Positions 2-21,300 of a stretch of 32,000 nucleotides of DNA are shown here, piece by piece. The position numbers and the translations under genes were made by a program. Source of the DNA: an archaeon (GTDB lineage Archaea; Asgardarchaeota; Thorarchaeia; Thorarchaeales; Thorarchaeaceae); the NCBI GenBank assembly GCA_024275415.1, contig JAJRZD010000017.1, forward strand, positions 75,058-107,057. Reading direction: 5' to 3'. The number at the start of each line of letters is the position of its first letter. Positions within the stretch are counted from its first letter, which is position 1. The notes beneath the pieces are model-generated. The model did not search any database, was not told the origin of the DNA, and saw only the letters and a list, made by a program, of their open reading frames with translations.

Positions 2-1147
2 CTTTCACATGCTGATGAGCTCTTCATGAAGCAAAAGGAGGTCGTGCTCAGGTCATGGGATGTGGTTCCCCGCTTCATGGATCGCAAAGAACTCGAGGCC
101 CTTCTCAGCAGGACTGAGGTGACTGAGATTGAGGATAGCATCCCTACTGAGACCCCACTGGACAGGTTTGTCGAGCTTCTATTTTCTGGTGTCAGGGCAG
201 GAGAGAGTGACGATTGGCACATCACTCTTGAGGAAATGCATCGATGGAAGGGATACAATGACATCGCGGACACCAAGATAGTTATTCGCCCACTTAATGC
301 AGCTGGCATCATCGCACCTGTCCTACGAACAGCTCGTGCTTCTCTGCTGATGAGCGGAACCTTGAGACCCACATCACTATATAGTCGTCTCATGGGCGTG
401 CAGGGCGCACTTGAGGAGGACATCACAAGCCCCTTTCCTCGTGGAAGTCGCATGGTGCTTCTTGAGCAGGAGTTGAGTACGAAGTATACCGAGCGTGGGA
501 CGGATTTGTGGAGGAAAATAGCTGGACGAATTGAAACTGCATTGCAGGCCATGCCTGCAGAGAAGTCCGCCCTTATCGCGTTCCCGAGCTATAACACCAT
601 GCAACAAGTGCTCAGCTTCAACATCGACACGGGATACAGGCAACGTGTTGTCGAAGAGCGTGGTGCGAAAATCGAAGAATTGATGGAACTCATCATACAA
701 AAGCCCTGTGCTATTTTCCTAGTGTTTGGCGGGAAGTTCAGCGAAGGTGTTGATCTCGTCCAAGATGGTAGGTCTCTCGTGGATTTGATAATAGGTGTTG
801 GTATCCCGTTCAGTCCTCCCACGCGATACCAACAGGCGTTGCAAGAGTGGTACGACAAAAGGTTTGGCGAGGGCACTGGTTATTATTACTCGTCAGTAGT
901 CCCCTCTATCCGGAAGGTCGTTCAGCTTATCGGACGGCTCCGAAGGTCTCCAGAGGACTCTGGGGTTGTCATGCTAGTGGATCGTCGTTTTGGGAGGCAT
1001 ATCAAGATGTTTGGTAAGGGTATCGAGTCTGACTTGTGGCCTTACAAGACCGATGAGGAGATTCGATATGCTATCAAGATGTTCAATCAACTTAGGCAGG
1101 AGAGTGTAAGAGAGAATGGAACTCCAACAGAATGTTTGGGATGTTAG
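2..1147 (+). CDS. xpd: XPD/Rad3/DinG-family SF2 helicase, C-terminal part (5'-truncated by window edge)
   Basis: Motifs LMSGTL (III), IAFPSY (IV), GGKFSEGVDL (V), GVGIPF and VVQLIGRLRRSPEDSGVVMLVDRRF (VI). The frame is open from base 2, so ATG 26 is not the true start. Confidence 0.88.
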   Translation, partial: LSHADELFMKQKEVVLRSWDVVPRFMDRKELEALLSRTEVTEIEDSIPTETPLDRFVELLFSGVRAGESDDWHITLEEMHRWKGYNDIADTKIVIRPLNAAGIIAPVLRTARASLLMSGTLRPTSLYSRLMGVQGALEEDITSPFPRGSRMVLLEQELSTKYTERGTDLWRKIAGRIETALQAMPAEKSALIAFPSYNTMQQVLSFNIDTGYRQRVVEERGAKIEELMELIIQKPCAIFLVFGGKFSEGVDLVQDGRSLVDLIIGVGIPFSPPTRYQQALQEWYDKRFGEGTGYYYSSVVPSIRKVVQLIGRLRRSPEDSGVVMLVDRRFGRHIKMFGKGIESDLWPYKTDEEIRYAIKMFNQLRQESVRENGTPTECLGC

Positions 1148-1334
1148 GAATCAGATCGTCAAAGTTTCGGCTGGAGGAGCGGTCGCTATCGTGCTGACAA
1201 TGATACTAGGCATTGTTGCAGTGATGGTTCTTGGAATCATCATGCTATGGGCATTTGGGGCACGCTTGACGCTTCGTGGGATGGGCGGCACTATCGATTA
1301 CGAGTCGATACAACAACGTGGTGACATCTTGTGA
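1116..1334 (+). CDS. small hypothetical membrane protein
   Basis: 72 aa with one long hydrophobic segment (AGGAVAIVLTMILGIVAVMVLGIIMLWAFGA). Its TGA overlaps the next GTG start (GTGA, 1331-1334). Confidence 0.6.
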   Translation: MELQQNVWDVRNQIVKVSAGGAVAIVLTMILGIVAVMVLGIIMLWAFGARLTLRGMGGTIDYESIQQRGDIL

Positions 1335-1924
1335 AGATAATGGATTCGTCGGCTCTCAGGTGGTCGATCCCCATCTCATTGGCTAGCGCGTGGGGAATCA
1401 AGGTGGCATTAGACGGCTCCCCAGATGTTCTCCTACAGAGTGTCATCGGGACTGCTGCACTTCTCTTGGTGGTCATGCTTGTCATCAGGAACAGAGGAAC
1501 CACCCGGATTTTCTGGGACGCGGAGAGGAGCCTACTGGCAATTGTCAGGACATGGACAATCGAGGTCAGCGCGGGACGCATGATAGAGAGCATACCCACC
1601 GAGATTGATCTCTCCCACAACAGCAGACGGGTCTTGGTCGCCATGGGTGCACGGTATGAAGACGAAGAAGGCGGCGAGCTGACGTTCTCTGTCCTGCGCC
1701 CCCTTGAGAGCGCACCTACGCTCATGGGGTTTGTTGTTTCACGAAAGAAGATGAGGATCGTCCGCGACTATGTGGATATGCAGTGCTTGGCCGATATGGT
1801 CACCAGTGACTCGCAGGTTCTTGAAAGTGCTATGCGAGCATCATTCTATCACACACCAATTTCAGTGGCTACCGCCGAGACCTTGGTGAGGATGAAGTCT
1901 GGAGGGGTCGCTCTTGCTCGGTAG
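1331..1924 (+). CDS. hypothetical protein with N-terminal transmembrane segments
   Basis: 197 aa, two N-terminal hydrophobic stretches then a soluble alpha/beta region. Overlaps both neighbours. Confidence 0.65.
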   Translation: MKIMDSSALRWSIPISLASAWGIKVALDGSPDVLLQSVIGTAALLLVVMLVIRNRGTTRIFWDAERSLLAIVRTWTIEVSAGRMIESIPTEIDLSHNSRRVLVAMGARYEDEEGGELTFSVLRPLESAPTLMGFVVSRKKMRIVRDYVDMQCLADMVTSDSQVLESAMRASFYHTPISVATAETLVRMKSGGVALAR

Positions 1925-2180
1925 TGATGTGATCTACCTAGAGATTCCATCATCCCTTCCCCTCCCCTCACTGATGGAGTCCCTTGCGATCGGACACGGC
2001 TACCAATGGACAGTCCTCGTAAAGACGCCCAAATTTGTTGCGTGGGGCAAGACTTCGATGGGGCCCGAAACTGAAGTACTGATCATTGGCAGACAGATGG
2101 TTCTGCAAAGTCAGCCCGCTATGGGTGAGCGGATGAAGCATCTAATCAAGGTGCTGGCGAGAAGGAGGAAACAGCGATGA
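1914..2180 (+). CDS. hypothetical protein
   Basis: TTG start preceded by GGAGGGG (1901-1907). ATGA overlap with the next gene. Basic C-terminus ARRRKQR. Confidence 0.55.
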   Translation: MLGSDVIYLEIPSSLPLPSLMESLAIGHGYQWTVLVKTPKFVAWGKTSMGPETEVLIIGRQMVLQSQPAMGERMKHLIKVLARRRKQR

Positions 2181-4516
2181 CACGGAGACATGTGATGGGT
2201 AGTGAGCCCCCAGTCGATCCGGTTGATCAGGTACGTCAGGCAATGCTTTCAGTCACGACGGATAACTCGATAAAGTTCAAGAACCGCAAGATACCAGAGT
2301 CGTGGACTGCCCCTACCGTTATCATTTTTCTATCGTTCATCGGGGTGTTCTTCTTCCCAATTCTTGTCATCATCCTTACGCTCGTCTTCATTCCTTCTCT
2401 ATTTGTGCTTCTCCAACTCCATCGGAGAGAACCCTTCGAGCAAGAAGGGCAGTGGCGTCTTACCCGTTTTACCCTTCCAAAGATAAGGGTTGTAGCAGGA
2501 TCGAAAGCCGTAGAGCTGAGAGGGGAACAGACCTCGTATCTGTCAGGCTCAAAAGTGACAAGGGTGGACAAGCACTTGCGCGGCGACCTTGCTAGTCTGG
2601 TCCGAGGCATCTACGCTGAAGATGGTTTCTGTCTCAACGTATCGATGAAACCAAGTGACACAAGTAGAGTAATGGACCACGATGTGCTGCACAGCAATAT
2701 CCGATCATTCTTACGGACTGGCTTTAGTGGAAGTGTCGAATCCTATATGGAATCACATGGCTACCTCTGGGATGTAGGAGTTTCTATCATTGGCAATATC
2801 CAGGATGAGCACATGGTCAGGAACTTCCAGAATTCCATAAAGGGAGCCCTACCTGTCAAACGATGGAAGACTGTCAAGCCTGATGCGCTGGCACAGACAG
2901 TCGAATCGTTCAACGCACAGAATGTCGAGCACACCTTCTATGCTGTGGGAGAGGAGCTTTCTGGATGGCTTGTCCAGATGCGGTCAGAGCTGACAGGCGA
3001 GGTGGGGATGAACGTCCCAGGGCAGTTCTATGCATCAATCCGTCCGCGTGTGGACGAGATTGCCATCGGCAACGTCATACATCCCGATACCCTGAGAGAA
3101 GGCCCTCCGATTGGACTGCTACCAGAGGAAGTCGCTGATGGCGTGCTAGTGTGTGGGGGTTCTATCGCGAATCGAAGGCTCGTGCTTGGACATCTTATCA
3201 AAGGGCTTCTTGAGCGTGGGAAACGTATCCTCATTTTGAGCGCACATAGCGAGACACAACTATTCACAGCACTCCACGATTCGGGAGTGGGGTTCGTGCT
3301 TGGAAAGAACTTCGTGCTCAACCCCGTAGACAACGAAAGGGTGCCAAGAGCAGAATATGTCACGCAGTTGCTGATGTCGTTGGAAGTCCTTACAGAGAAG
3401 ACACTGACCTTTGCCGCTGACCTTGAGCAGGCACTCGTACGGGCGGTGGCATTACCCTATTCCACTGTGGCAGATGTGAAGATGGAGGAAGACGAGACCA
3501 TCTCCACTGAATCAGGAACCACTTCTCAGCCATCGACATTGGGCGACAACAGGCACTCATTCATGGGGATGGAAGCTGTGCGTCGCCTGTGTCAAGGTGC
3601 GGGTGCTCGGGCGTTTTATGGCACACAGACTGTCTTGATCGAACGGTTGACAGGGCTTCCGCTCAGTGTGCTTTCTGTCCCCCTTGGCAATGATGCTCTG
3701 GAAAACTTCGCTTGGGACCTGCTCCTGTTGAAGCTCGGAGCTGTCAGGCATGACAAGGATTTAGTAGTAGTCCTAGACGACCCATTATCTTTACGATACA
3801 CATTTAGAAGGTTCGGACGCCGAGAGACCTTCATCGAGCGCCTGATGCGAGCTCTTTCTGAACGGTTCAGTCTCATAGTCAGCATCGATCGCCCCAGCGA
3901 CATTGGAACCGGAGTCCGGAGTCTTCTCCAATCATGCATCTCCTTGCGGTTGAAGCATGACGATGATGTTGCCAGTGTCACCTCGACCCTTTCACTTAAT
4001 GTCGTGAGTTCAGGACTACACAGCAAGGCAAGGTGGTCTCCGCGGGAATCGGCATTCCTGCGAACGCTTGATGATGGCATGGCACTCATTGTGCGGGATG
4101 CCACTGAAACTGCACAACCAGTGAAACTTCTCCCGCCTCTGGAACTTGGTTCTATCTCTGATGATGATATGAATTCTAGGATCACTACTGTTGTTCCAAG
4201 CGTTGAGACCCCGTCTGATATGCGGGATGGGACGCTCATCGAACGAGTTGGCAAGGGTGACTCCGAGTTGACTACCCATGTGTTGCGCCTTCTTGAGAGA
4301 TATGAGCCTCTCACCGAGAACGCGGTCAGGAAGTTCATCCAGTCCAAGGGTGCCTTGTCTGAAGATATCGATGTGGAAGGCATCCTCATCCGTCTGAAGC
4401 AGGCAGGAATGATTCTCGAAGGGCATGAAACTCACAGTGGGGTTTCCTACAAGAACTATCGATTGACCATGAAGGGAACGCTTGCACTTAGACAGGCTGA
4501 GGAGGTGACAGGATGA
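2177..4516 (+). CDS. membrane-anchored HerA/VirB4/FtsK-like P-loop protein with degenerate Walker motifs and probable C-terminal winged helix
   Basis: N-terminal hydrophobic hairpin. The Walker A position reads VLVCGGSIANRR (no GKT/S) and Walker B reads VVVLDDP. HerA/VirB4-style segment LIVSIDRPSDIG...LQSCISLRLKHDDDVASV. C-terminus LIRLKQAGMILEG...YRLTMKG is wHTH-like. Confidence 0.65.
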   Translation: MTRRHVMGSEPPVDPVDQVRQAMLSVTTDNSIKFKNRKIPESWTAPTVIIFLSFIGVFFFPILVIILTLVFIPSLFVLLQLHRREPFEQEGQWRLTRFTLPKIRVVAGSKAVELRGEQTSYLSGSKVTRVDKHLRGDLASLVRGIYAEDGFCLNVSMKPSDTSRVMDHDVLHSNIRSFLRTGFSGSVESYMESHGYLWDVGVSIIGNIQDEHMVRNFQNSIKGALPVKRWKTVKPDALAQTVESFNAQNVEHTFYAVGEELSGWLVQMRSELTGEVGMNVPGQFYASIRPRVDEIAIGNVIHPDTLREGPPIGLLPEEVADGVLVCGGSIANRRLVLGHLIKGLLERGKRILILSAHSETQLFTALHDSGVGFVLGKNFVLNPVDNERVPRAEYVTQLLMSLEVLTEKTLTFAADLEQALVRAVALPYSTVADVKMEEDETISTESGTTSQPSTLGDNRHSFMGMEAVRRLCQGAGARAFYGTQTVLIERLTGLPLSVLSVPLGNDALENFAWDLLLLKLGAVRHDKDLVVVLDDPLSLRYTFRRFGRRETFIERLMRALSERFSLIVSIDRPSDIGTGVRSLLQSCISLRLKHDDDVASVTSTLSLNVVSSGLHSKARWSPRESAFLRTLDDGMALIVRDATETAQPVKLLPPLELGSISDDDMNSRITTVVPSVETPSDMRDGTLIERVGKGDSELTTHVLRLLERYEPLTENAVRKFIQSKGALSEDIDVEGILIRLKQAGMILEGHETHSGVSYKNYRLTMKGTLALRQAEEVTG

Positions 4517-6693
4517 TCTCCACTGATCAGGTACACCCGATCATCAAGATGGTCGAAGAAGTTGGTTTCTCGCCACGAGGCATCCAGAGAAAGGCAATCG
4601 AGTACGGACTGCTCGATGGGAAAAGTGTCCTTGTCTGTGCTCCCACGGGTGCAGGGAAGACCCTCATTGGGGAAATGGCACTCCTGCGAGCTATTGAGGC
4701 TGGACGAAGAGGATTGTACCTCGTGCCCCTGAGAGCACTAGCAAACCAAGTCTATAGCATTCTGAAAGAAAGGTATGAGCGTCAGCGGATTACCGTCGGA
4801 ATTTCGACTAGCGACTATTACAGTACCGGTGAGCTCCTGAGTTAATATGACATCCTAGTGACGACTTATGAGAGGGCTGATTCATTACTCAGGCACAGGA
4901 CTCCATGGCTGTCAGAAGTAGGCACATTAGTCATCGATGAGATCCAGAGCCTGGGTCTTCCGGGTCGTGGCGCACGCCTTGAGAGTACTATCATCCGCTT
5001 TAAGAAAATCGTAGAGAACCTTCAGATAGTCGGCCTGTCCGCCACAGTCGGGATGCCTGAGCTGTTGGCTGAATGGTTGGAATGCGAACTCGTCGAATCG
5101 AATGAACGAAAAGTCCCTCTTCTAGTTGCTGTTGCAACACGACCAAACCGTGATGAAGCTGTCCGCACATATACAATGAAGACTATCCAGACCAATGGAC
5201 AGGTGATCATTTTCCACCGGACACGGAAAGAAGCCGAGGCGGAAACAAAACGATTGATGCCTCATGTTTCAAGGCATCTGACAGAAGAAGAGCGGGCACT
5301 CTTGCAATCCACGCTCGGGTCGATAGAGTACTTTGATGCATATCTTCCAGAAGGACTGAGTTCGGCTATGCTGAATGGTGTTGCCTATCACAATGCCAGC
5401 TTGAATGGAGGTGCCAGAAGGATGGTGGAGCGCTTGTTCAGGAAAGGACTTATCCGTGTCATTTGCGCCACAAGCACATTATCTACAGGAATGGATCTTC
5501 CTGCAAGAACCGTCATCATTGCTTCGTGCAGGTCTCCTGCAAACTACAATGAGCTGTTGCCTGCAAATCGAGTACATCAAATGTTGGGACGAGCGGGCAG
5601 ACCTGGGATGGACAGGAAAGGTTACGGTTTTGTGATTGCCCAGAGCAAGGGACAGGCAGAGGAAATCAAGCGCAGGTACTTCATAGAAAGTACTGACGAC
5701 CTAGGAGCCACTGTGCTCCTCCCAAAATATGATCCAGTGAACAGTGTTCTTGGAGATTCCAAGGTGTTAACAGAGCAGCTGCTTGTCGCGTTGGATATGT
5801 TGCGGGAGGGCTCAATTGAGGACGTTGAGGACTTCCTGCTGGCACCGTCACTGCTGACATTCCGTTCAGTTAGACAGTCGCAGCCGACCATGCGACTCTT
5901 CATACTAGGTGAGATTACGGCAGAGGCCGTCATTGAACGGCATGGTTTCATGGATACGGTTCGTGCAGGACGAGGTGATGTTCTGGGAACTGTAGATTTG
6001 AGAGAGAAGACTGAGCACATCATAGGCGGACTGGTGACTGAAACTGGTGGGGCTAGCTATACCTGCCGGTTCAGTACTAGAGTCACTCAGTCAGGAACAA
6101 TGGAGGGTCCTCAATGCTCTTGTGGGAAACCTCTCGATGCCAGTGGTGTTCTCTGTCAGCATCTTGTCACATTAGGGTTACAAGCTATACAGCAGGAGCC
6201 CGAGAGGGCTGACTTTATCATCCCACTTGCATTGGACGAGATCAGCCCCCTCAGGGTGTTGGTACGACTCGGTCTTGTTGAAGGGGGAGAATCCAGCGGA
6301 ACCTATCGACCGACGCCGTTGGGATTGCTTGTATCACGATTATACTTGAGGATCGATACGGCCCGCGAGATGCTAGCAATGATGCCGTTGATTGAGGAAC
6401 CGCAATCCTTTGTCCGGTTCTTGCTGCATCTGATCGAGATTGATACAGGCACAAACCTGGAACAACCACACGAACGTCTTCTTACACTTGCGGCTTCGAC
6501 CACGATGCCCTTTGATCAACTATCCGAATACAGTGGTATCCCAACCGGCGATATCTACACATTCCTTCAACATGCGCGATGGCTGAGCTATGCAGTCATG
6601 GCAATTGCAAAGAAAGGTAATCTGCTTGAACTGAGCGACATGGCACAAAGACTCTACGAGGAGGTTGACGCTCGTTTTACAGGAGGAACTTGA
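4513..6693 (+). pseudogene. Hel308/Ski2-like SF2 helicase with inserted SWIM zinc finger, interrupted by one in-frame TAA (4843-4845)
   Basis: ORFs 4513-4845 and 4858-6693 share a frame and join as ...GELLS*YDILVTTYERADSLLRH. Motifs APTGAGKT, DEIQ, SAT, FHRTRKEAE, TSTLSTGMDLPA and QMLGRAGRPG. SD GGAGGTGA at 4501-4508. The stop may be an assembly error. Confidence 0.85.
6115..6162 (+). other. SWIM-type zinc finger motif (CxC-x10-CxH) inside the helicase
   Basis: CSCGKPLDASGVLCQH, preceded by the beta-rich segment GASYTCRF, matches the SWIM consensus CxCx(n)CxH. Confidence 0.75.
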
Positions 6694-6694
6694 A

Positions 6695-8395
6695 TTGACA
6701 ACATCAGACGAAACAGAGGTTATTGCAAAGGAGGCTACGGCCGAGGACGAAAAGGAAGCGCCAACAAACATGATTGTAGGGCTTCTCGAACGAACAGGAC
6801 ACAAGACCCACATCTATTCGAACGGTATCATTGCAGCCCTTCGACTGGAGGGCATTGAGGGAACGAGAGGGGTTCATGTGGACATCGTGTTCATCGTGGA
6901 CTGGGATTTAGGAGCGTTCACTGGAACCAAGATGGGTACTCAGGCTGTGCTCCTTGAGATTGTCAATAGAAGCACAGACTCGATTCTCAGGGACTTCGGC
7001 TACGGGGATAGGTATTGTACAATATCAAAACGCACGCTAAAAGGCAATGTTTGTATTGACACCCTGTGTCCAGATCTCGGAAAACAGGGAAGTGTTATCC
7101 ATGCCACTCGCACAGTTTACGTGGTCTACGAGGAGCGAAGACCAGGGATGGATTTGTCGTGGTTGACTGAGGAAGCCCGTATCCTTCCAAAGGAGGATTT
7201 CATCGTAGCACGTGAGAGCGATATACGAAGCCACAGACCTGAAGTCCAACGTCGGGTCGCTGAGGAGAAATGGACCTTCCTCAGCCGCGGGCTGGTGTTC
7301 CTCTATGGGATGGCTTTTGCATCGGTTTTTACGATATCGAGTTTGGTCGGTCTTCTTGTGGCGTTCATCAACGCGAATGGTATAATGATCCCATTGGCTG
7401 GATTAGTGGTTGGTGCCGTCCTCTCACTCGGCACCGCTTATCTATCGATAACCCATATCTCCCAGTTCAATAGAGATCTGGAATCGGAGAGGCAATCGCT
7501 TTCCAAAATCGGGGATACTGCAAGAGTCGAGGCCAGTGCCAGCACCAGCAAGGACACGTTAGACCTGCTAAGAGACCTGTCCTTTGTGGTTTCGCCACTC
7601 ATGGCTGAAGTCGGAGGGGCAATCCGTATTGGCGATACCGAGGGGGCCGCTGAAACAGCGAACCTCATCATTGATGAAGTAGTCCGGCTCTCACCTCATT
7701 CAGTGAAGATGGGGGATGAAGGCATCTCCAAGTTCATCGGTATGTTCACGTCGCAGGATCCCGAGTGCGATGTGGGTGAGCTCTCTCTCTGTTATTCTTC
7801 ACTCACTGGGCACATCACTAATCCGCTAAGCGAGGAAGATGTCCTGCGCAATTGTACCGTGCTGCTCAATTCATTGCATAGGATCGGAGGAGTCCGCACC
7901 GAGGTGAAAGAAACTGTTGACAATATGATGAATGAACGCTCGATGAAAGCAGCATTAGCAGAGATTCGCAAAGAGATGGATGTGCCGGTACAAGAGGAGC
8001 CCTCTCAGGAAGACCTCCCTGTTGGTGCCGATGATGCAGACATCAACTTGTTGAAAGAGATGGACAAGGAGGCTGAGGAGATTACCCCTGACGAGCCCTC
8101 AGAAGTGGTCGAGACCGCCAAAGATGCTTTAGACACAGCACATCCCGAAACAAAGGATCATCCCCATTCAGAGGAGGACGATACAGCAGCCAGTGACCAA
8201 CCGGACTCTGGGGAGGTGATTGACTTCGTAGAAGTGGAGGCAGTGACAGTGGAAACGATTGAGGTCACTCCTTCCGTGGAAATCACAGCAGCCGATGTCA
8301 TAGACCAATCCAAGAAAGAAGCAGTAATGTATGCAAACTCAGGACGTGACAACTCTCGTCCTGAACGGAGGAGGAAGGCAAAGAGTGCAGCATGA
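6695..8395 (+). CDS. hypothetical membrane protein with two central TM helices and a long acidic low-complexity tail
   Basis: Likely TTG start at 6695 after AGGAGG (6681-6686); the ORF track starts at 6665. Two hydrophobic segments (GLVFLYGMAF...; IMIPLAGLVVG...). E/D-rich region about 7980-8330 and a basic end RPERRRKAK. Confidence 0.75.
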   Translation: MTTSDETEVIAKEATAEDEKEAPTNMIVGLLERTGHKTHIYSNGIIAALRLEGIEGTRGVHVDIVFIVDWDLGAFTGTKMGTQAVLLEIVNRSTDSILRDFGYGDRYCTISKRTLKGNVCIDTLCPDLGKQGSVIHATRTVYVVYEERRPGMDLSWLTEEARILPKEDFIVARESDIRSHRPEVQRRVAEEKWTFLSRGLVFLYGMAFASVFTISSLVGLLVAFINANGIMIPLAGLVVGAVLSLGTAYLSITHISQFNRDLESERQSLSKIGDTARVEASASTSKDTLDLLRDLSFVVSPLMAEVGGAIRIGDTEGAAETANLIIDEVVRLSPHSVKMGDEGISKFIGMFTSQDPECDVGELSLCYSSLTGHITNPLSEEDVLRNCTVLLNSLHRIGGVRTEVKETVDNMMNERSMKAALAEIRKEMDVPVQEEPSQEDLPVGADDADINLLKEMDKEAEEITPDEPSEVVETAKDALDTAHPETKDHPHSEEDDTAASDQPDSGEVIDFVEVEAVTVETIEVTPSVEITAADVIDQSKKEAVMYANSGRDNSRPERRRKAKSAA

Positions 8396-9071
8396 TCACA
8401 TCGAGCATCTGATCAACGACGGTGGGATTATCCATCTCTCTGGAGAGCCCTTCTCGGGAAAGACTCGACTAGGGATACACTTTGCAGCAAAGGCATCTCA
8501 GTCCGGACATGTGATATGGCTGTGCGCAGACGGAAAGACCTCATTCGTCGAGGACTTGCGAAAGAACATCACAGCGAGTCAGGGAGTGGTATCTAATTTG
8601 GAATTGATCTTTCCGAATGGACATGAAGAAATCTACGAGTCTCTTATGACGATCCATAGTTTCCTTAAGGATGATACAATTCTGGTCGTCATTGACCCCA
8701 TCACCCGAGCTATTGACCTTGGCAGAAGATATGACGATGAGATGTGGGGACGAGAATTGTTCGAAGACGTTCTTCCAAGCCTTGTCGGGCTGGCCATGGG
8801 GAATGAACTATGCATCGTGTTCACAAGTGAAGTACGTATGGGTGAAGGGGGTGCTACCCGTCCTGTGTTTCACAAGAAGCTCACACAGTGGGCTGATGTA
8901 GAGATACACGCAGAACGTGCCATGACGATGACCTATTCTCACCTTACTCTCAGAAGGTGTAATAGTGAACCAGCAGATTTTGGCATCATGCGCATCAAGA
9001 ATGGACTTGTCACTATTGATGTAAGTGGTCAGGAGGTGCAGGATTGTTCGGAAAGCTCGTGTTCCGTCTAG
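8385..9071 (+). CDS. RecA-superfamily RadB-like paralog with intact Walker A
   Basis: IIHLSGEPFSGKT (Walker A), VIWLCADGK and LVVIDPIT (Walker B). Probable GTG start at 8385 after GGAGGAGG; the ORF track starts at 8331. Confidence 0.75.
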   Translation: MQHDHIEHLINDGGIIHLSGEPFSGKTRLGIHFAAKASQSGHVIWLCADGKTSFVEDLRKNITASQGVVSNLELIFPNGHEEIYESLMTIHSFLKDDTILVVIDPITRAIDLGRRYDDEMWGRELFEDVLPSLVGLAMGNELCIVFTSEVRMGEGGATRPVFHKKLTQWADVEIHAERAMTMTYSHLTLRRCNSEPADFGIMRIKNGLVTIDVSGQEVQDCSESSCSV

Positions 9072-9979
9072 CCAAGTGGGGTGTGATAGGCGCGTTCGCG
9101 TTGATAGCGGGCGTCTATTTCATTTCGTCCGTGTCAGGCATAGTCGTCCAGACTAGGACTGGCAACTTGCTACCGTTCGTGAGCCTTGCGGTGGCTGCAT
9201 CACTACTTGTATGGGTGTCGGAGAACAAAGAGATAGAATGGAAGATTGGCGCGCTCATCCTGAAGGTACTCTCAGGATTCTCGGCAGTGTTCTTCCTCCT
9301 CACACTCTTCCTCTTCTTCGCCCCGAACATCATCTTAGGAATCGTTGCTGCACTAGGCGGGCTCTTTTATCTTGCAATGCTTTCGAACCCAAAGTCCTTT
9401 TCTAGAATGATGGACTCGTCCTATGCCTTCTCTGGTGGGCTTGGCCCCATTACCCCTATCAACTATGAGCGTGCAGTCCATGCATTCAAGCAGCATGTAC
9501 AGGCGTATATGATAACACCTGCACAGACAGACACTATCATCACCCATCTCAAGGACCGCCCCCAGCTCCCAATCGCTATCACGCGCTTCGAAGAAACAGA
9601 TATCCTGTATATCCAAGAGAAGTCCGAGGTGACCACCCGGATCCTCTCTCTGCTAGAACTCGCTGCTGTCTCACCAGCGCCACCGTTCCTCACACATATA
9701 GTCGTGGCACTTCCACTGATCGAGAATGAGAACGGGTTTGCTCTCTCGGAATACCGGATTGTGGACGACCAAACAGTCGTCGAGAGGTTGCTGACAAATC
9801 TTCCACTTCGAACCACTGTCATCCCGCACCAGAACGGGCCCCGACTCATTATCCCTGAAGAGCATATCATCGGGATGGACGCCAAGACGATTCCACGTAG
9901 TCACCTCTTCAGGGCAGTAGTGATGAAAAATATCAGGGGATTGGAACCCTCCATGGAGGTCGTGCATGTTGCCGATTGA
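9044..9979 (+). CDS. hypothetical membrane protein (about 4 N-terminal TM helices plus soluble domain)
   Basis: 311 aa with four hydrophobic segments in the first ~115 aa. TTG start after GGAGGTG. Overlaps both neighbours. Confidence 0.7.
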   Translation: MFGKLVFRLAKWGVIGAFALIAGVYFISSVSGIVVQTRTGNLLPFVSLAVAASLLVWVSENKEIEWKIGALILKVLSGFSAVFFLLTLFLFFAPNIILGIVAALGGLFYLAMLSNPKSFSRMMDSSYAFSGGLGPITPINYERAVHAFKQHVQAYMITPAQTDTIITHLKDRPQLPIAITRFEETDILYIQEKSEVTTRILSLLELAAVSPAPPFLTHIVVALPLIENENGFALSEYRIVDDQTVVERLLTNLPLRTTVIPHQNGPRLIIPEEHIIGMDAKTIPRSHLFRAVVMKNIRGLEPSMEVVHVAD

Positions 9980-10703
9980 GGGTGTGTCACTGGATGAGAT
10001 CGAGGTCTGCTTGCAACCTGTCGTACGCCTGCTTCCAAGGAGGCTCGACAGGACGCTTGGGGCATTGCTGTTGCCCAGACAGATATCGGTACTTCATGGT
10101 GCCGAACGGGCTCCTCTGAGTATTATTGCTCACGGAGTCACTGTGTCCAGTCTTCGTCAGAAAAAGGACGCTCGTGTTGTGTTCCTTGACAGTGGTAGCA
10201 ACTACAAACCTAGAACCATCAGGAACCTGTGTAAGATGATGGGCATTTCAGGGGACGATATCAAGCGGATCGTTGTGGGAAAAGTACTTGACCTTTACAA
10301 CCTTGAGCGGATGGTCGCGCAAGTCAAAGGTATGCATGACGTTACAGTGGTCATTCTTGACAATCTGACCTCCACCCTTAACAAATCATTTCCTCCCGGA
10401 AGCAAAGGACGACAGAGGCAGTTATTCCAGACCCTAGAAGATTTCAGGGATCTAGTGAACGAGATCGGATGTCACTTGCTCATCACTGACCATTCTTCTG
10501 TTGACTGGAACTCTGGTGCTAGAACTCCCGTCGGAGGAAATGTATTAGCCCATGCTGTCGACACTCTGGTGTCTGTGACCGTCATCGATTCACATGAACA
10601 TCTGGTTTCGCTCCTTGTGGAACAGACCCCGGTCACACCGATGCCAGCAGGATGTGTGCTGGTCGTAACAGTGGATGGGATACGCACAATAAAGGGGGCC
10701 TGA
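9966..10703 (+). CDS. RecA/Rad51-paralog-like protein with degenerate Walker A
   Basis: RecA-fold layout: ISVLHGAERAPLS (Walker A position, no GKT), VVFLDSGSNY, VVILDNL (Walker B), CHLLITDH and PVGGNVLAHAVDTLV (cf. RadA/RadB GG..LAH). SD GGAGGT. Confidence 0.7.
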   Translation: MLPIEGVSLDEIEVCLQPVVRLLPRRLDRTLGALLLPRQISVLHGAERAPLSIIAHGVTVSSLRQKKDARVVFLDSGSNYKPRTIRNLCKMMGISGDDIKRIVVGKVLDLYNLERMVAQVKGMHDVTVVILDNLTSTLNKSFPPGSKGRQRQLFQTLEDFRDLVNEIGCHLLITDHSSVDWNSGARTPVGGNVLAHAVDTLVSVTVIDSHEHLVSLLVEQTPVTPMPAGCVLVVTVDGIRTIKGA

Positions 10704-10711
10704 GAACAGAC

Positions 10712-11707
10712 ATGGGCGTGCGCAAATGGGACTTCATCCAGTGGGAACTTGCAGACCTTGACGAGATACGACCACGGGTAATGGCAATTGATACCCCGAA
10801 CTACATCACTCGACTGACACAATCGTATGTATATCATCAGAAACGGAGGGATGCAGAACGGATTCCCACGCAACATGTCTGGGCTGTCCTCGGGATAATA
10901 AGACAGGCACTACGACATGGCTTCACTCCGGTATTCGTCTTTGATGGGCCACCAGAAGCCTTGAAACGCCCTCCCAATCCTGAGCTGGTTTCGTCAGCGA
11001 CGGAGCTGTACAGGAAGTTTCGTGAACATAATGACATCTACAACTCGCGATTGGCAGAAGCACTCAACGATAGCAAGGCTATGCAATGGTATTTTGCAGT
11101 CAACCACTTGAAGGATCTGTTCAAGGCCATTGGCATCCCTTCATTCACCGCACCAAGTGAGGCAGAGATGGCAGCTGCGGTTATGGTAAGTGATGCAACT
11201 GCCGGCACTGTTGTCACGAATGACATCGATGCACTCCTTTTCGGGGCACCCCATGTGACCAGGGCAGTCAAGTTCGCTAAAAAACAGATCGAGAGGGTAT
11301 ACCTGAATGATGTGGCGGCAGGGCTCAAGACAGACCTAACTCGTCTCAGAGACCTTGCAATCCTATGTGGGTGTGACTTCTATCCGAGTGGCATCAAGGG
11401 CATCGGCCCCCGCAAGGGACTGGCTCTCCTCAATCAACACGGAAACCTAGAGAGAGTCCTAAAGGCAAGGGGACTCCCCCCAAATGAACGGGCAACAATC
11501 CTCGATGCTAGGGCAGTCTTCGACGAACCTATGTTCCTCCAGTTAGATGGAATCCCCTCCTCGATAAACCCCCCCTTAGTGTCCCGAGTCAGCGAACTGT
11601 TACGCCCCGTCATGGGGAAGGAACGTGCAAAGAAAACTACAGAAGAACTGGTCAAACTCTGGAAAGAGTTCGGTCGAGAGCAAGTCACATTGGAGAGGTG
11701 GACATAG
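10712..11707 (+). CDS. fen: flap endonuclease FEN1/XPG family nuclease with C-terminal PIP box
   Basis: ATG 10712 gives MGV. All seven acidic active-site positions are present (AIDT, VFDG, SEAE, NDID, GCDF), with H3TH GIKGIGPRKG. C-terminal QVTLERW fits the archaeal PIP box QxxLxxW. Confidence 0.9.
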   Translation: MGVRKWDFIQWELADLDEIRPRVMAIDTPNYITRLTQSYVYHQKRRDAERIPTQHVWAVLGIIRQALRHGFTPVFVFDGPPEALKRPPNPELVSSATELYRKFREHNDIYNSRLAEALNDSKAMQWYFAVNHLKDLFKAIGIPSFTAPSEAEMAAAVMVSDATAGTVVTNDIDALLFGAPHVTRAVKFAKKQIERVYLNDVAAGLKTDLTRLRDLAILCGCDFYPSGIKGIGPRKGLALLNQHGNLERVLKARGLPPNERATILDARAVFDEPMFLQLDGIPSSINPPLVSRVSELLRPVMGKERAKKTTEELVKLWKEFGREQVTLERWT

Positions 11708-11904
11708 TGGACAGGCGTATGGTTCTCCCCGAAGATGCATTGAACTCTCCTATTATCGAGTCTGTGTCAAGTCCTTGTGTCGCCTGCATACACTATACCT
11801 ACTTTGGTTGTACTCTTGGACACCCTTGCGCTAGAAAGGTCGTATGGAACGCAATCCAGAGGAGGATCGATTCAAATGAAAAAGAACAAGACCGAACTAT
11901 TTGA
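11698..11904 (+). CDS. small Cys-rich putative metal-binding protein (CX2CX7CX5C)
   Basis: 68 aa, with Cys codons at 11776, 11785, 11809 and 11827. The start is uncertain (GTG 11698, GTG 11707 or ATG 11719). Confidence 0.55.
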   Translation: MDIVDRRMVLPEDALNSPIIESVSSPCVACIHYTYFGCTLGHPCARKVVWNAIQRRIDSNEKEQDRTI

Positions 11905-12022
11905 TATCAGGCAAGAATATGGGACAGTGCTGAGAAAGCATATGCATAGTTCAGGCACTATCACCCAAAACACCCGGACGGTGAGAGTGGCATCTAGCAT
12001 GAGGGTGGAGGTGGACGAATGA
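11876..12022 (+). CDS. possible 48-aa hypothetical protein
   Basis: ATG 11876 follows GAGGAGG and fills the gap before xpf, with an ATGA overlap at 12019-12022. No recognisable motif. Confidence 0.3.
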   Translation: MKKNKTELFDIRQEYGTVLRKHMHSSGTITQNTRTVRVASSMRVEVDE

Positions 12023-12762
12023 GTATCGCAGACGACATCATCATCAATGACTTGGAGCTTGAGATGATCATCAGGGACTGTCCTCAGAACAGGATCATTT
12101 ACGATTCACGAGAGAGCTCAGACTACATCACAAAGCTTCAGGCAATCCTTGTCAACGAGGGGCTTGAGTGGGAGCGGATAATGCTGCCTATTGGGGACTA
12201 TATAGTCAATGGGACAGTGATTGAGCGGAAGACCCCAGAGGATTTTTTGAACTCGATTTATCCTGTTCCGCGTCTGAATAACCAGTTGGTTCATATGTCA
12301 AGGAATTGTGCAGAGTCCGTCATTGCTATCATCGGTAATCCCTGGGCCGCCACTGGACAAGATCCAGTACGAGAAGCCATCGTTTCATCCGCGCTCGCGA
12401 GTATCTGGAAACGGAGGGCCGCTGATGGTGTTAGAGGGATTGTCATCCCCCAAGTGTTCTTGCCTCCTGATGCCGACAGGAGGTTCGCACTTTGGCTGAA
12501 AGCGCTCAGTAGGAAGGAGCCGGTCAGAGAGCTCAAGTTGAGCAGAGGTGCGACAAGTGGTGGAAACCAGTTAGTGCGGACTGTGTCAACTGTGCCCGGA
12601 TGGGGTGTTGAGCTGTCCCGAAGAGCATTGGAAGCGTTCGGTACACTCAAGATGCTGATTGACGCGTCTCCCTCGGATTTGAGCGAGCGTATTGATAATG
12701 TTGGATCAGCCAAGGCTAAGATATTCCATGAATTCTTCAGAAGGCCTTACAATAATAGTTAA
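12019..12762 (+). CDS. xpf: short-form XPF/ERCC4 (Mus81/Hef-type) structure-specific nuclease with HhH2 domain
   Basis: GDYIV...ERKTPED (GDY plus ERKx3D) and RLNNQL. Tandem HhH motifs STVPGWGVELS and IDNVGSAKA. SD GGAGGTGG. Confidence 0.88.
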   Translation: MSIADDIIINDLELEMIIRDCPQNRIIYDSRESSDYITKLQAILVNEGLEWERIMLPIGDYIVNGTVIERKTPEDFLNSIYPVPRLNNQLVHMSRNCAESVIAIIGNPWAATGQDPVREAIVSSALASIWKRRAADGVRGIVIPQVFLPPDADRRFALWLKALSRKEPVRELKLSRGATSGGNQLVRTVSTVPGWGVELSRRALEAFGTLKMLIDASPSDLSERIDNVGSAKAKIFHEFFRRPYNNS

Positions 12763-14752: not shown

Positions 14753-15343
14753 ATGGACATCCAAACACTGGTTCTGGTCAACCTGTTCTTATCCATCCAG
14801 CTCACGCCGCTTGTACTTGTGAGCGTGACCATAATCAGGGGAGTCCTTCTGCTACGAGGTCGGAAACGGGAGTTTGAGGACTGGACGAGAAACCCGTTGA
14901 TGGCGGTACTGTCTATCATCTTCCTTCCGGGAACATTGATCTACATAGGGATACGCTACGCCATCACGAGGCTGGCTCGAATCAGGGTTGACCGCATCAG
15001 CGGGTCAAGCACCTACGGAGAGGTCAACCTCTTTCTCGTCGTCGAAGATCCCCCAAGCCTTGGAATCGTCCTTGTCGCCCTTTATTCGACCTTAGTCCTG
15101 ACAGTCTTCGTAGCACTTACTCTTCTCGTGTTGCCCTTGGCACTAGTGCCCAATCTACCACTCTCGGTTCTCCTCTGGTATGTGGGAGTGGGCACTTTCT
15201 ACAATGCATCCGTCCGCAGCGGTGACGCAAGTCTTGTCCTTTCCTCGCTTCGGGACAACCCACGACGAGGAGCGCTAGAGCTTGTCGCATTCATCGCATT
15301 GCTATACATACTCCAAACACAACTCGTGGTGATGATCCTATGA
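14753..15343 (+). CDS. membrane protein resembling M50-like/zincin membrane peptidases but lacking HExxH
   Basis: Likely ATG 14753; the ORF track starts at 14711. IFLPGTLIYIGIRYAITRLARIRV aligns with the family pattern FLPGTxxHELSHxxxxxLxGxxV with H/E/H replaced, and a later VRSGD matches the PSxxD-like motif. ATGA overlap with the giant gene. Confidence 0.55.
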   Translation: MDIQTLVLVNLFLSIQLTPLVLVSVTIIRGVLLLRGRKREFEDWTRNPLMAVLSIIFLPGTLIYIGIRYAITRLARIRVDRISGSSTYGEVNLFLVVEDPPSLGIVLVALYSTLVLTVFVALTLLVLPLALVPNLPLSVLLWYVGVGTFYNASVRSGDASLVLSSLRDNPRRGALELVAFIALLYILQTQLVVMIL

Positions 15344-18300
15344 AACGCACGCATATCATCCGGATATTCAACGTCAGAGGTACCCGACAAGTAATGGTCA
15401 CTATTGTTGCTATGTTCCTCTTTGTCAACTTTGCTGGCTCTTTGTTCGCACAAGTACCACTGACCGGACATGCTTCAGCCGAGGGGGTGAATGACCACTA
15501 CCCACTGGAATCAACATCCTTCATCCCTTCGGCATCACTCGGAACACCTGCAAGAGTTGGGGAGTATATCATTCTGCGCTACACTGGCCAAAGCACGCCA
15601 AGCAGGGCTACATCTCTTGAGAGTCTGATGGTATCATGGGGGATGATTACCACCACCTATGACGTTACTGATGTCATGGGAAACCCAGAGGTCTTGAGAG
15701 ATGCCCCTGCAATCATTATCGATGGTAGTGTTGGTTCGGACCAAGGGATTGCCATTCCACGAAGCGTCATCATCGCGCTCATTCAGGCTGACAGACCTGT
15801 CATTCTCCTAGGCAATGCGAGCTGGCTCGTTCCAGCTCTGTCTGGGCACAAAGGTCCCCCCATCAAGACTGCTCCGGTGACGACACAGTTCTTTCCAGAT
15901 CACGGAGCAGTCTACTCGGTCTATCCGAACAACATCACGGACGGAGCAACTCTCACCTCTGAGTCATTGACATTACCGATTAATCCTGTCCAGACTGAAT
16001 ATTCTAGACTGGTCAACCTGACATCGAGCAGCAATCCGTCTGTTCTTCCGGTACTCCAGTATCTCTCTTACCGGCTTGACACATTCATCGTGGGATTGGG
16101 AGATCCCCTTCTCTGGACTACAGACGGAGAGATGTTGCTTGAGAATATCATTGCCTACGCCACTACCCTATCAGAATCACCGACAAGCGTGGCGATAGGG
16201 GACACACAATATTATGACACAGTTTCAGGAGGACTTGCCTACGGTCATGTCCCCGAGGTGAAAAACACATACTATGCGGTTCATATGGCATATGACCTAC
16301 TGAGTCCGTCTGAGTTCTCAACATGGGCCCTTCAGAGAGAATCCGTTGTATTCTCCATCCTTTCTGACCTATATGTGGATGAGGGATCCGTTTCTGGTTT
16401 CAAGAAGAACAGATATGCTACAGGGACAGACCTTGTATCGACTGCACAGGGACTCTGGGTCATGGAAACTATGGGACTTGCTTCTTATTTTGTAGAGGCA
16501 GAAGTCATCTCGTATCTCTCCAACGCCCAAGACGCGGATGGTGGGTTTGCAAACGATGTGACGACAACATACCTTGTGACAGAAGCATTGGCGGTCTCTG
16601 GATCGCTTTCGACCGTGAACACCGCCAATCTCATCTTCTGGCTGCACGAGTGCCAGGTCAAATCTGCTGACAGCGGGGACATAGCCACTTGGGGTGGCTT
16701 TGGCAAGAATCCGACAGACGGGAACCCCTCATCGCTCTACACCTTCCAAGGGCTTCTAGCCCTGCAGTTCCTGAATGAGGGACACGACGACCTCAAGACA
16801 GTAGAATGGTTATGGAACCGGATGAATGGTGATGGCTCGTTTGATAATACGATTTCTGACGGTTCAGACCTCATTGTAGGTACTGCAAGTGCCATTGGTG
16901 CGCTGGAACTGTTCTCTGTGCTTGATACAGGGAACAAGTCACAGAGCCTTGGGTGGCTTGCGAACAAGCAACTCCCCTCTGGCGGCTTTGGGAATAACGA
17001 TGCAGATATCGTAGGAAGGACAAAGGACACCGCATACGTGGCCTTGAGCCTTGCGGTTCTTGGGGAGAGCGCGAACCCAATTGCATCGTCCATCATGTCA
17101 TTCATTAACACAATAGAACATGAGGCAGGGTTCGATGGCATGAGGATCATCCCCTCTTTGATGTGGGGTTATTATCTCGGCACCGCAGCAAGGTACAGTC
17201 ACGCGTCAGGCAGCGTCAACATGACCGATCTTGAGAGATACCTTCTGCGATTGACCGACATGAGCATCTATCCGCCATGGTCCAATATCTCAGCATATAT
17301 CACACCAGAATACAGCATAAACCAGTACTGGATGAAGAGCGTATGGACATATCTCTTCGGTGTCGGGATGGCTAATATCACTGGGGTTCAACTTACAAGC
17401 ACAGACTACATCGCCACCTACCTTGTTCAGCAACAGGACTCGTCTGGTCACTTCAAGCCCTACATCTATCCTAGCACACCACACATGCAATACTCGGTCG
17501 CTGCCGTAGAGGCACTCTATCTTCTAGACGCGCTAGATCTCATGTCTTATCGGGCACAGTTGGAATCTGCTGTTCTTGCCGAGTATGCAGCCGGCTCGTG
17601 GTCGGGTATTGGCTGGACACTTGAGCCATTGGCGGGAAACCAACCAGTCATAGATTGGCTCTCCACTCGTGCAGCAGCCCGGTTAGGCATCCTCAACACC
17701 ACGATGGCTGCCGAGATCGCATCATCAGTAATTGGACGACTTCAGTACACAGACCTGTGGGCGTTATCACGTGACGTGGCATCTCTATCTCTTCTTGACT
17801 CCATATTCTCCTCTGACTATCTTGGATACGTCAACAAATCCCAAGTTTTGGATGCATTACGTTCGTCTAGCTTACGTACCACCGGTTGGTACAACACGAC
17901 GTCAGTGTGGCAACCTCTATTCACATCGGGTGTTCTAGAGATGGTTTCGCAGCTGGGACTGCGAACGAATCTCACAGATGCGTTTGGTTCACGAATCACA
18001 GCCACACTGGCGTCACCACCCATTGTCGGGAACAACCTCGATATCGATGTGAACATCGAATCATCCCAGAACAATCATTCCATCTATGTCTACGCCTTTG
18101 GTACTTGGACACTGTTCGAGAATGTGACAAATACAGATACGCTTATTCTCACTGTCCCTGCTGATGCATCGATGCTGGGCCCCCAAGACATCTCGATTAT
18201 GCTATGGGACACTGGGCAGTCCCGTGCTTACGGTCTGGTTCCTACTACGGTCAGCAGTAGCCTGACAGGGAGCATGGTTCTCGATGAAACAATGTTGCTG

Positions 18301-21300
18301 ATGGGCGATAATGTGAATGGCACTGTCACATGGTTCCTACAGGACTCGATTGATGCAGGATTGACCAATATCACAGTCAAGCTCGGTGATCCCCCGACGT
18401 ACAAACAGTGGTACTACACTGATGTGAGCCCGTTCTCATTCTCGGTGCCCACAACTGATTTTGGTGCGGGAACCTACAACCTGACGGTCACGCTTGAAAA
18501 GGACTATTGCGCAACGCTTGTCCTTCAACAGGAGGTCATTATAGATGTGCCAGTTGAGGTCTATTTCCAGACCAATGCCACATTGTCGGGACATGTCCTT
18601 GAGCAGAGTACGATACCGTTTGACCTTCTATTCGTTGGGAACGACAGTCAGGCAGTAGGACAATCCGTGACTCTCATCATCACAGACGAGTACTCGACTG
18701 TTGTGTACACTGATAGCATGGTTTCTACTCCGGGTACGGACAATTTCTTGTGGACGCCATCACAACGAGGGAATTACACATTCACTCTCTCTACTGAGCG
18801 CAACGGCACGATTGAAGCGACACAGACCAGTGGTTTCATCGAGATAAGTGAGGATTCTGCCCTGACATGGTACAACGACGGGACACACGAGCAATATTCC
18901 AATGTCACACTGACAGCATACCTCTCCGGAGAAACTGGGGGTTCACTTGCCGGGAGGAGTGTCCGTGTCATCATCATGTCTCCTTCGTCCTCAACAGTCA
19001 TCGATACTGTATTGACCACGAACTCGACAGGGCATGTATCTATCGATCTCTATCTAGCCGAGAATGGCTTCTACACTCTCAGATGCGAATATGCAGGAGA
19101 GTATCTGATATCACCGACGTTCTCACTGTCCACGATCAACTCGTTCTCCAATACCAGTATCACCCTGTCAGGCGTTGCACCTGAGGGATTGGTGAACCAG
19201 ACATGGGAGATTGCTGCAGAACTGGTCGATTCGCAAGGACTCCCGCTATTTGGGAAGAACGTCACAATCACTATCACGTATCTACCTTCAACTACCGTAT
19301 ATCAAGCAACTCTGACGACGAATGCCACCGGTCACGTATCGCTCCAATGGACATTTCCTGCTCATGGAGCGTATTCCGTCAAGGCAGTGTTTGCAGGCAC
19401 AGCATCACTTCTTGCAAGCAACGTTACAGCCCTCTCGGATCTGTACACACCATCCTCACCTTCTATCACAGCTACATCATCTTTTGAGGTAGGAATCCTA
19501 GGATGGATTCAAGTCTTGGTTGAGGATCATGACGCGAATTCCTTGAACGGTGTGAATCTCTCTTTCGTCGTCAGAGACCCTCTTGATACTGTTATCTATT
19601 CAGCGACAGGCACCACTGTGAATGGACTATACAATTTCACGTTTTTGCCAACAATGAGAGGCGTGAACAGTTACGAGGTTTCGATTGACCGCCAAGGCTG
19701 GATAGAAGGTTCATTCATTGCAGGAACCATCAGGGTGTACGAACAGGTGCAGGTCGTGTTACAGCTTGATGCGCCACCGATAGCAGTAGGCTCTGGAACC
19801 CTGACAATAACAGTATTGGATTCAAGCGGCAACCCAATCCCGTCGTTAACCCTGACGACCGTGAGTACGCTTGACGGGACAATGATTCTTAATGTCACAG
19901 CCATTACTGACGGCAATGGTCAGGTCACCCTGTTATTGAATTATAATGCCATTGGAGCACTCTACATAGCAGTGGACATACCACAGCAGTCATGGCTCTA
20001 TGAGTCACACGTTTCAGATGGCTGGACAGTCCTAGGCCAGACAACACTTGGTATCCCACACAACGGCCTTCCGATTGACCAGGGCACGACCATCGGGTAC
20101 ACTGTCACTCTTTCTGATTGGATGGACAATCCGCTTGCGGGAGGGGATATTACCATCACGATCGAGTTCTCCAATGGCACTCTACTGCGAACCATTGCAC
20201 GGGTGACAGGCACGGACGGAACCTGTGCCTTTGGTCAGACCTATGACCTAGTAGGCGATTTCGTCGTACGTGCATCGTATTCAGGTACTGGGTTGAACGC
20301 TTCTTCTGAATCGTTCATCATTCAACGTGTGACGGTGACTCCTGACCTTGTACTGCTTAGCGATCCGACTGTCCAACTTGGTGACACCGCTGAGTTCCTA
20401 GTTGCCTTGAAAGACAACTATGGTGCGTTCATTGCTGGGAGGTCAATCACCCTATCGGTCAGCATGGACGGGATCACTATCTACGAAACAGTCACTCTAT
20501 CCGAGTCACAGACAATTGCAATACATTGGACTCCGACAGCACGAGGGCTAGCCACGGTGACTCTGCTGCATCAAGGAGATGTGTACTATCTTGAGAACTC
20601 GACCTACAAGACGATATCAGTGATGGAAGTTGCGACAGGTGAAGTCGTCTTCGAAAATGATGTCATCGACCTCTTTGATTCAGTCGTCATCAACTATACA
20701 CTAACGTGCAATGACGCATTAAACGTCACGATCGATTTCACGATACTGGACGCTGATATGTTCCCAATCTGGACACAAACAGTGGTCACTGATGCGAACG
20801 GGCTTGCGACTGTTAACTATATTGCCGATGACGCTTACGGAGTCCTCTCAGTGCTTGTGGCTCCTTCCATCGACCAGTTCCTGATGGGTGCAGATATACA
20901 GGCACTATTCACGGTCAAAACGACTGGAACCCCTGATGTCATATTGGAACCCTACCCTGCTATCGTCTTGAAGCCTGTCAACATCACCGTTAGTGTGACA
21001 GACCAGCTTGGTGGTGGGATTGATGGAATCACTGTCAGTGTTTCTGCTTACTTCCAAGGACAGAAAGTGGATCTTGGCGGTTTCGCTGGCACTGCACGAG
21101 TCGATATCATCGATGGCATTGGCATTGTCACCTTCGTCCCGGAGAGGGCTGGTGCGTACAGCTTCTCGGTTTCCTACTCTGGTGGCAAGATAGTCTACTC
21201 ATTCGATGCAAGCGGTTTTGTGAGGAATGTACATTCTCCCACCTACCTCACATTCGTGTTACTCACTTCAGACCTAGAAACGGGGAACACTTTGAATGCG

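Follow-up and report, generated by a model that had tools for sequence, protein, structure and literature searches.

Does an operon that joins a SWIM-bearing, Hel308-type helicase to two paralogs of the RadA/Rad51 family encode a prokaryotic counterpart of the eukaryotic Shu complex and of the HELQ-BCDX2 partnership? The question is raised by a window of 32,000 nucleotides (contig JAJRZD010000017.1, positions 75058-107057) from a 3.5 Mb metagenome-assembled genome (MAG) of the Thorarchaeota, in which the helicase frame and the genes of the two paralogs, RecA246 and RecA245, lie on the + strand between positions 4513 and 10703. In eukaryotes, the SWIM domain of Shu2 contacts the Rad51-like protein Shu1 (PMC5727457), and the helicase HELQ binds the RAD51-paralog complex BCDX2 (PMC13623763). 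The cooperation of eukaryotic Rad51 paralogs, SWIM proteins and HELQ is still unclear, and no known prokaryotes are more closely related to eukaryotes than Asgard archaea. An earlier annotation made from the letters alone (the sequence-only reading) had proposed that the operon encodes such a counterpart, with both interactions linked in one polypeptide. The analysis described here points instead, with about an even chance of being right, to a membrane-linked, private module for recombination and DNA processing, whose likeness to the Shu complex and to HELQ-BCDX2 is one of analogy and not of descent.

The helicase frame (4513..6693, + strand) comprises 727 codons with one interruption and was recognized by the Pfam models DEAD and Helicase_C. 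Its Hel308 type, as proposed earlier, was borne out by the family profile, which matched Pyrococcus Hjm/Hel308 (2zj2) at 3e-132. Motifs I, II and VI of the superfamily 2 (SF2) motor are present, and the frame shares with the archaeal Hel308/Hjm proteins (2zj2, 2p6r, 2va8), which are Ski2-like members of SF2, the RecA1, RecA2, winged-helix and ratchet domains. Profile positions 4-458 aligned with Hjm residues 5-450, and positions 579-624 with Hjm residues 458-503. As the alignment breaks between Hjm 450 and 458, an insert of ~120 residues is placed inside winged-helix domain 3; the sequence-only reading was right to see a SWIM insert in the helicase, and its placement between the winged-helix region and the ratchet did not hold. 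Pfam Helicase_dom4_arc was matched in 14 of 15 members of the helicase family. The C-terminus falls at about Hjm residue 646, where helix-hairpin-helix (HhH) domain 5 would start, and this domain, present in Hel308/Hjm, is absent. The NCBIfam Hel308 models scored 180-219 bits against cut-offs of 887-1216, so that the equivalog level was not reached. The helicase is a Hel308 paralog that lacks HhH domain 5 and has a SWIM zinc module within the winged-helix domain. The canonical Hel308 of the genome, a protein of 783 amino acids (aa), has domain 5 and no SWIM insert; its gene (L117:13-3862, G000:C43) directly follows an MCM gene and overlaps it. A third Hel308-like paralog of 675 aa (L118:2405-4429, G000:C17) carries a textbook SWIM motif, CTC-x14-CKH, and matches Pfam SWIM better than any other protein of the genome (E 0.025); its N-terminal part shows no GK(T/S) P-loop.

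The structured core of the insert (5914..6207, + strand) contains the motif CSCGKPLDASGVLCQH, i.e., CSC-x10-CQH at residues 420-435 of the frame 4858-6690, which lies at DNA positions 6115-6162, exactly where the sequence-only reading had put it. The predicted zinc ligands are those of the CxC (6115-6123) and the CxH (6154-6162). The pattern C.C.{6,25}C.H arose in 6 of 20,000 shuffles of the helicase. The ligands C420, C422, C433 and H435 did not vary among 76 homologues; they are fixed in a set of 15 helicases whose identity falls as low as 21%, and the motif was present in all 73 full-length Asgard homologues fetched, while the single Methanobacteriota Hel308 fetched had neither the motif nor ~93 residues at the site. 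The search with the Pfam SWIM hidden Markov model (PF04434) that had been suggested earlier gave no match to the window helicase, above or below the gathering score and even at E<=10; three distant members among the 15 of the family were matched weakly (best E 0.0096).

The AlphaFold2 model of the insert, built from an alignment of 52 sequences, had a predicted local distance difference test score (pLDDT) of 79.7, with 83-94 in the core, and consisted of two helices and four strands, in which the CxC ends the last strand and the CxH opens a helix. The SWIM zinc finger (PF04434), known from ZSWIM8 and bacterial SNF2-associated proteins, likewise has the motif CxC-xn-CxH, a helix starting from the CxH and a preceding four-stranded sheet. 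A structural search against PDB representatives with VIA-align gave ZSWIM8 (9rwz_M) as the sole outlier, with a Z of 6.2 and a root-mean-square deviation of 3.6 Å over 88 residues (chain 114-214). The next matches reached Z 3.9 and 3.2, a repeat search gave the same result, and Shu2 was not among the matches listed. Foldseek of the model against the PDB returned no match, and neither did the insert profile against PDB sequences, those of Shu2 and ZSWIM8 included. In the ESM Atlas, the neighbours beyond the insert's own cluster were clusters with Pfam SWIM in 60-80% of their members (TM ~0.5 over ~90 residues), as well as bacterial SNF2/SNF2_assoc proteins. Against 1.84 billion representatives, the insert profile found 77 proteins only, mostly helicases of 720-870 aa matched at about residues 450-640, and it retrieved five small stand-alone proteins that pass Pfam SWIM (22-35 bits against a cut-off of 19.6). 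With the predicted model, the ZSWIM8 match, the Atlas clusters and this profile bridge to Pfam-SWIM proteins all in its favour, the insert is accepted, by prediction, as the SWIM domain that had been claimed, and zinc binding is predicted. Bacterial SNF2 proteins likewise join SWIM to an SF2 motor, but here the host is of the Hel308 type and the module is an internal insert.

The family of SWIM-bearing, Hel308-type helicases was seen only in Asgard archaea. Its members are named in databases only as "hypothetical protein," "DEAD/DEAH box helicase" or "replicative superfamily II helicase"; a literature search found no paper describing the family, and a survey of archaeal Ski2-like helicases makes no mention of SWIM (PMC10946056). 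The members from other Asgard lineages are ~840 aa in length, with a motif spacer of 19-21 residues, and stand in a conserved neighbourhood of membrane proteins, an HhH protein, a Hef-like helicase, a Zn-ribbon protein and a prenyltransferase-toroid protein. The Thorarchaeota operon also encodes a Zn-ribbon protein, which gave no significant match (E 0.24) when compared with the DUF1922-like protein encoded beside the 840-aa helicases. A RecA-type gene is missing from the surroundings of most SWIM helicases that were fetched from these lineages. An Odin/Baldr-type locus contains a toroid protein, a RadB-like gene, the SWIM helicase and a HerA-like protein with a winged helix-turn-helix, the RadB-like gene being located two genes upstream of the helicase.

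The two paralogs encoded beside the window helicase differ in their nucleotide-binding sites, as the sequence-only reading had stated, one Walker A being intact and the other dead. RecA246 (8331..9071, + strand) retains both Walker A (GxxxSGKT) and Walker B. Its best NCBIfam match was RadB (TIGR02237) at 6.4e-11, with 42 bits against a cut-off of 172. The RecA246 family profile matched RadB 2cvf at 1e-6 over nearly the full length and RAD51D at 7e-4, the comparison with eukaryotic proteins being one of profile E-values against PDB chains. In a tree, which covered Asgard RadA-family proteins, RecA246 grouped with RadB-like proteins (support 99/93), and the same grouping took in, on long branches, the RadB-like neighbours of SWIM helicases from the Odin/Baldr-type and Loki loci. 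Similar to RadB (TIGR02237; 2cvf), RecA246 is a RadA paralog reduced to the core, with both Walker motifs; it differs from RadB in showing only ~35% identity even within a genus and in the position of its gene between two membrane-protein genes.

RecA245 (9966..10703, + strand) passes Pfam Rad51 (PF08423) at 1.4e-10, with 41 bits against a cut-off of 22, and its family profile matched RadA/Rad51/DMC1 at up to 4e-16. In the tree it fell on the RadA side with a very long stem. The sequence G-x-E-R-x-P-L-S/T replaces GxxxxGK(S/T) at its P-loop; a canonical Walker A was seen in none of 115 representatives, while GGN[VIL], kept in the window as PxGGNVLAH, was present in 113 of the 115. RecA245-type genes occurred in 23 of the 26 genomes sampled from one Thorarchaeota family and in 0 of 124 other Asgard genomes, and the named members of this protein family in a collection of 5.8 billion proteins all came from Thorarchaeota or from generically labelled Asgard MAGs. 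A relationship to KaiC-like ATPases, which the sequence-only reading had kept in view, was not borne out: KaiC models matched the P-loop region only (E 0.002-0.03) and not the whole domain, and RecA246 goes with RadB and RecA245 with RadA/Rad51. Judged from profiles and tree, RecA246 is a predicted RadB-like ATPase and RecA245 a predicted pseudo-ATPase with a RadA core. A fusion of RecA245 to the following FEN1-like gene, suggested by open frames of 576-596 aa, was rejected, as one in-frame stop separates the genes; in the loci L120, L121 and L122 both lie in one frame, with the single stop and 3-5 codons between them. A further RadA-related family of 254-262 aa, with no GK(S/T) P-loop (L110:1441-2202, L126, L128, L130, L131), was present in all five genomes checked, and the tree places it as the sister group of canonical RadA.

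These genes are translationally coupled parts of an operon of ~19 genes conserved in Thorarchaeota. The overlapping + strand genes run from the XPD-like end of the window through the FEN1-like gene. The XPD-like helicase, of which the window holds the C-terminal part (2..1147), was identified by Pfam Helicase_C_2 (7.6e-24) and HBB and occupies the same position in all Thorarchaeota loci, and the FEN1-like nuclease (10652..11707), identified by Pfam XPG_I (9.5e-17) and XPG_N, overlaps the end of RecA245. The order XPD, two small proteins, 779-aa protein, helicase, 576-aa protein, RecA246, 311-aa protein, RecA245 and FEN1 is kept, with occasional gaps, in ~30 Thorarchaeota MAGs of at least 11 genera, and the neighbourhood of helicase and paralogs, first noticed in a single stretch, is thus a conserved linkage. 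The search for related loci with a single protein found none, and the query with an alignment succeeded. The operon begins upstream of the window, and ~2 kb upstream of it lies the gene of a third RadA-like paralog, full-length at 361 aa, which combines an intact P-loop with an HhH domain; a RadA-like gene stands upstream in most of the ~30 loci, and the canonical RadA is encoded elsewhere in the genome.

The XPD-like and FEN1-like proteins are second copies, as better-scoring XPD (G000:C10) and FEN1 (G000:C123) proteins are encoded elsewhere in the same genome, and the same was found for the RadA-family proteins and the helicase of the operon. The operon carries second, faster-evolving copies of RadA, XPD, Hel308, RadB and FEN1. 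Within a genus, the canonical RadA core is 93-95% identical as against 45% for RecA245 and 35% for RecA246, and the canonical Hel308 is 70% identical as against 53% for the operon helicase.

The interruption of the helicase frame is an in-frame TAA (4843..4845, + strand) between motifs Ia and Ib, which divides the frame into 110 and 611+ codons and occurs only in the present MAG. The orthologous helicases (723-736 aa) are unbroken and have E, D or T at this column, and GAA to TAA is a single change. Either the TAA arose recently as a nonsense mutation or the assembly is wrong at this point; translation could restart past it from a GTG at 4858. This stop, the location of the insert inside the winged-helix domain of a helicase without domain 5, and the third RadA-like paralog upstream are points that go beyond the sequence-only reading. 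If the TAA is real, the module could be decaying in this genome, with the helicase a pseudogene and its neighbours relics. Such a decay agrees with the residue found at the TAA column in all orthologues, and no relative of the window proteins exceeds 55% identity, so drift is possible. However, there is one lesion only; the helicase retains all 38 of 38 invariant columns, the zinc ligands and the motor motifs; the neighbouring genes are all intact and overlapping; and comparable single breaks in other MAGs (L051, L027) look like assembly errors. Decay is therefore considered doubtful, although it keeps some weight.

The enzyme genes of the operon are interleaved with membrane-protein genes and with the gene of a VirB4/HerA-fold pseudo-ATPase, none of which entered the Shu-type picture drawn earlier. 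The latter gene (2177..4516, + strand), whose stop overlaps the start of the helicase, encodes a membrane-anchored protein of 779 aa with a hydrophobic hairpin at residues 42-83. Its core, modelled by AlphaFold2 over residues 285-700 (pLDDT 82.7), matched VirB4 4ag5 in Foldseek (E 1e-10, TM 0.63-0.72), followed by HerA and TrwB. The Walker A position reads GG-x4-R in all orthologues, and the P-loop is degenerate. Hydropathy analysis placed hydrophobic segments in four operon proteins, i.e., those of 779, 197, 576 and 311 aa. The 197-aa protein, with one such segment, is followed in a conserved order by a protein of 88 aa (together 1331..2180, + strand); no Pfam match was obtained for either. 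The 576-aa protein (6665..8395, + strand) has two hydrophobic segments and an acidic tail, and the 311-aa protein (9044..9979, + strand) has about four N-terminal hydrophobic segments followed by a soluble domain. Both are conserved in position, and neither had a family match or a match in the protein atlas.

Membrane-anchored VirB4/HerA-fold proteins are also found in the Ced/Ted DNA-import systems of Thermoproteota and in the HerA-NurA resection module, and small membrane proteins and adjoining DNA-processing enzymes are further features in common with the operon. Unlike these systems, the operon has a degenerate P-loop in its 779-aa protein and contains no NurA, Mre11 or Rad50; resemblance in sequence to CedA or CedB did not come up, no search having been aimed at it. 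The same composition could suggest a conflict system directed against viruses or plasmids, built, like Hachiman or HerA-based systems, around a HerA-like hub with a Ski2-type helicase and a nuclease, the RecA-like proteins serving as sensors or effectors. Defence systems typically contain paralogs of housekeeping enzymes, most parts of the operon evolve fast, the HerA/VirB4 fold is present, and PADLOC matched the helicase to HamB models (1e-19) and the 779-aa protein to mad8 (1.6e-4). These PADLOC matches are, however, generic for SF2 or weak, seven other proteins gave none, and no specific system was indicated. Unlike patchy defence islands, the operon is single-copy and syntenic in 23 of 26 genomes of the family and in every complete locus examined, and neither a full-length RadA-like recombinase nor XPD is known as a defence part. 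A role in defence hence appears quite improbable.

The proposal closest to the sequence-only reading is that the RadB-like protein and the dead RadA-core protein bind as a pair to the SWIM insert in the way that Rad51 paralogs bind to Shu2/SWS1, so that Shu-like and HELQ-BCDX2-like contacts would be combined in one polypeptide for the mediation of RadA filaments. In the Shu complex (Shu2/SWS1 with Shu1-Psy3-Csm2 or SWSAP1), as in the operon, a SWIM module occurs alongside Rad51-family paralogs of which one is non-catalytic, and the pairing of a non-catalytic with a catalytic paralog recalls Psy3-Csm2 and Rad55-Rad57. The SWIM fold is predicted, membership of the paralogs in the Rad51 family is confirmed, the operon linkage is strict in Thorarchaeota, and the RadB-like genes beside SWIM helicases at the Odin/Baldr-type and Loki loci group with RecA246. 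A natural fusion also hints at contact: the metagenomic protein P0187 (L132:8001-9167; 388 aa) joins SWIM to a RecA/aRadC-like ATPase. Its contig carries many small co-directional genes, a primase large subunit and a DNA ligase, and probably belongs to a virus or plasmid.

Against such docking stand the absence of a RecA-type neighbour from most SWIM helicases of other Asgard lineages, the restriction of RecA245 to one Thorarchaeota family and the membrane-protein genes that separate the paralog genes from the helicase gene and from each other. In profile searches against PDB sequences, the insert showed no relation to Shu2/SWS1, and the paralogs showed none to SWSAP1, Psy3 or Csm2. Shu2/SWS1 proteins carry the signature CxC...CxHxxA (PMC6316741); in the insert this alanine is not conserved, the H+3 position being T in the window and variable in orthologues. 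Whereas Shu2/SWS1 is small and stands alone, the SWIM module of the operon is an insert in a helicase of 727 codons, with a linkage at the level of genes, and the RadB-like and RadA-derived paralogs are lineage-specific inventions, unlike those of the Shu complex. The parallel with HELQ-BCDX2 is likewise partial. HELQ is a Hel308-family helicase functionally tied to Rad51 paralogs, but the tie in the operon is genomic only, HELQ has no SWIM domain, and the operon helicase is not the canonical Hel308 orthologue of its genome. A complex prediction for RecA246 and RecA245 with the SWIM insert as partner scored 0.02 (mark 0.32), which speaks neither way on binding. Docking of the Shu2 type is considered unlikely; if true, these operons would be a prokaryotic, fused analogue of the Shu and HELQ-BCDX2 partnerships within an undescribed membrane-linked recombination machine.

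The likeness is treated as analogy because the SWIM insert is family-wide in Asgard archaea, RecA245 is young and lineage-specific, and no sequence relation to Shu proteins was found; the confinement of RecA245 to one Thorarchaeota family also makes an ancestral precursor of the Shu or HELQ partnerships unlikely. In the membrane-linked recombination and DNA-processing module favoured here, the cluster would act at the membrane, and its substrate may be DNA that is taken up or exchanged. The RadA-like recombinase of the operon may be assisted by RecA246 and RecA245 as a pair of mediators, the helicase would remodel or unwind intermediates, and the FEN1-like nuclease would trim flaps. Throughout the Asgard helicase family, the SWIM module may serve as an extra surface that binds a DNA branch or a partner common to the members, and it would not be a dedicated dock of the Shu2 type for RecA246/RecA245.

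Four observations weigh against this module. The VirB4 fold and the membrane proteins are the only reasons for considering DNA import, and the ATPase in question is without a P-loop. The charge of the insert is near neutral (mean -0.6), and DNA binding by the SWIM module is therefore not indicated. The P0187 fusion favours direct contact of SWIM with a paralog more than the module as proposed allows, and the TAA interrupts the helicase in the present genome. In Thorarchaeota, the helicase is firmly tied to RadA and RadB paralogs of its own and to a membrane protein of the VirB4 fold. This simple set of proteins lends itself to biochemistry, which could show how a helicase and such paralogs cooperate and whether recombination is linked to the handling of DNA at the membrane.

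Downstream of the FEN1-like gene on the + strand lie an open reading frame of 81 aa (11777-12022) and a gene for an ERCC4/XPF-HhH nuclease (12019-12762); when the window proteins were searched against 14 related loci, neither found a match. In a Loki MAG (L064:4102-8523), the gene of a divergent P-loop protein resembling RecA/KaiC shares an overlap with a FEN1-like gene; an Arf-family small GTPase gene comes next, and then a SWIM helicase. Large proteins with a prenyltransferase alpha-alpha toroid (770-2600 aa), some of them with Ig-like domains, were found within ~8 kb of SWIM helicases (window 15340-23160; L058:12922-19758; L069:1783-5793; L080:2007-5009; L085:16278-19202). This association of toroid proteins and SWIM helicases is recurrent, as it was observed in Thorarchaeota, at the Odin/Baldr-type locus and at ~15 Loki, Hod and Hermod loci.

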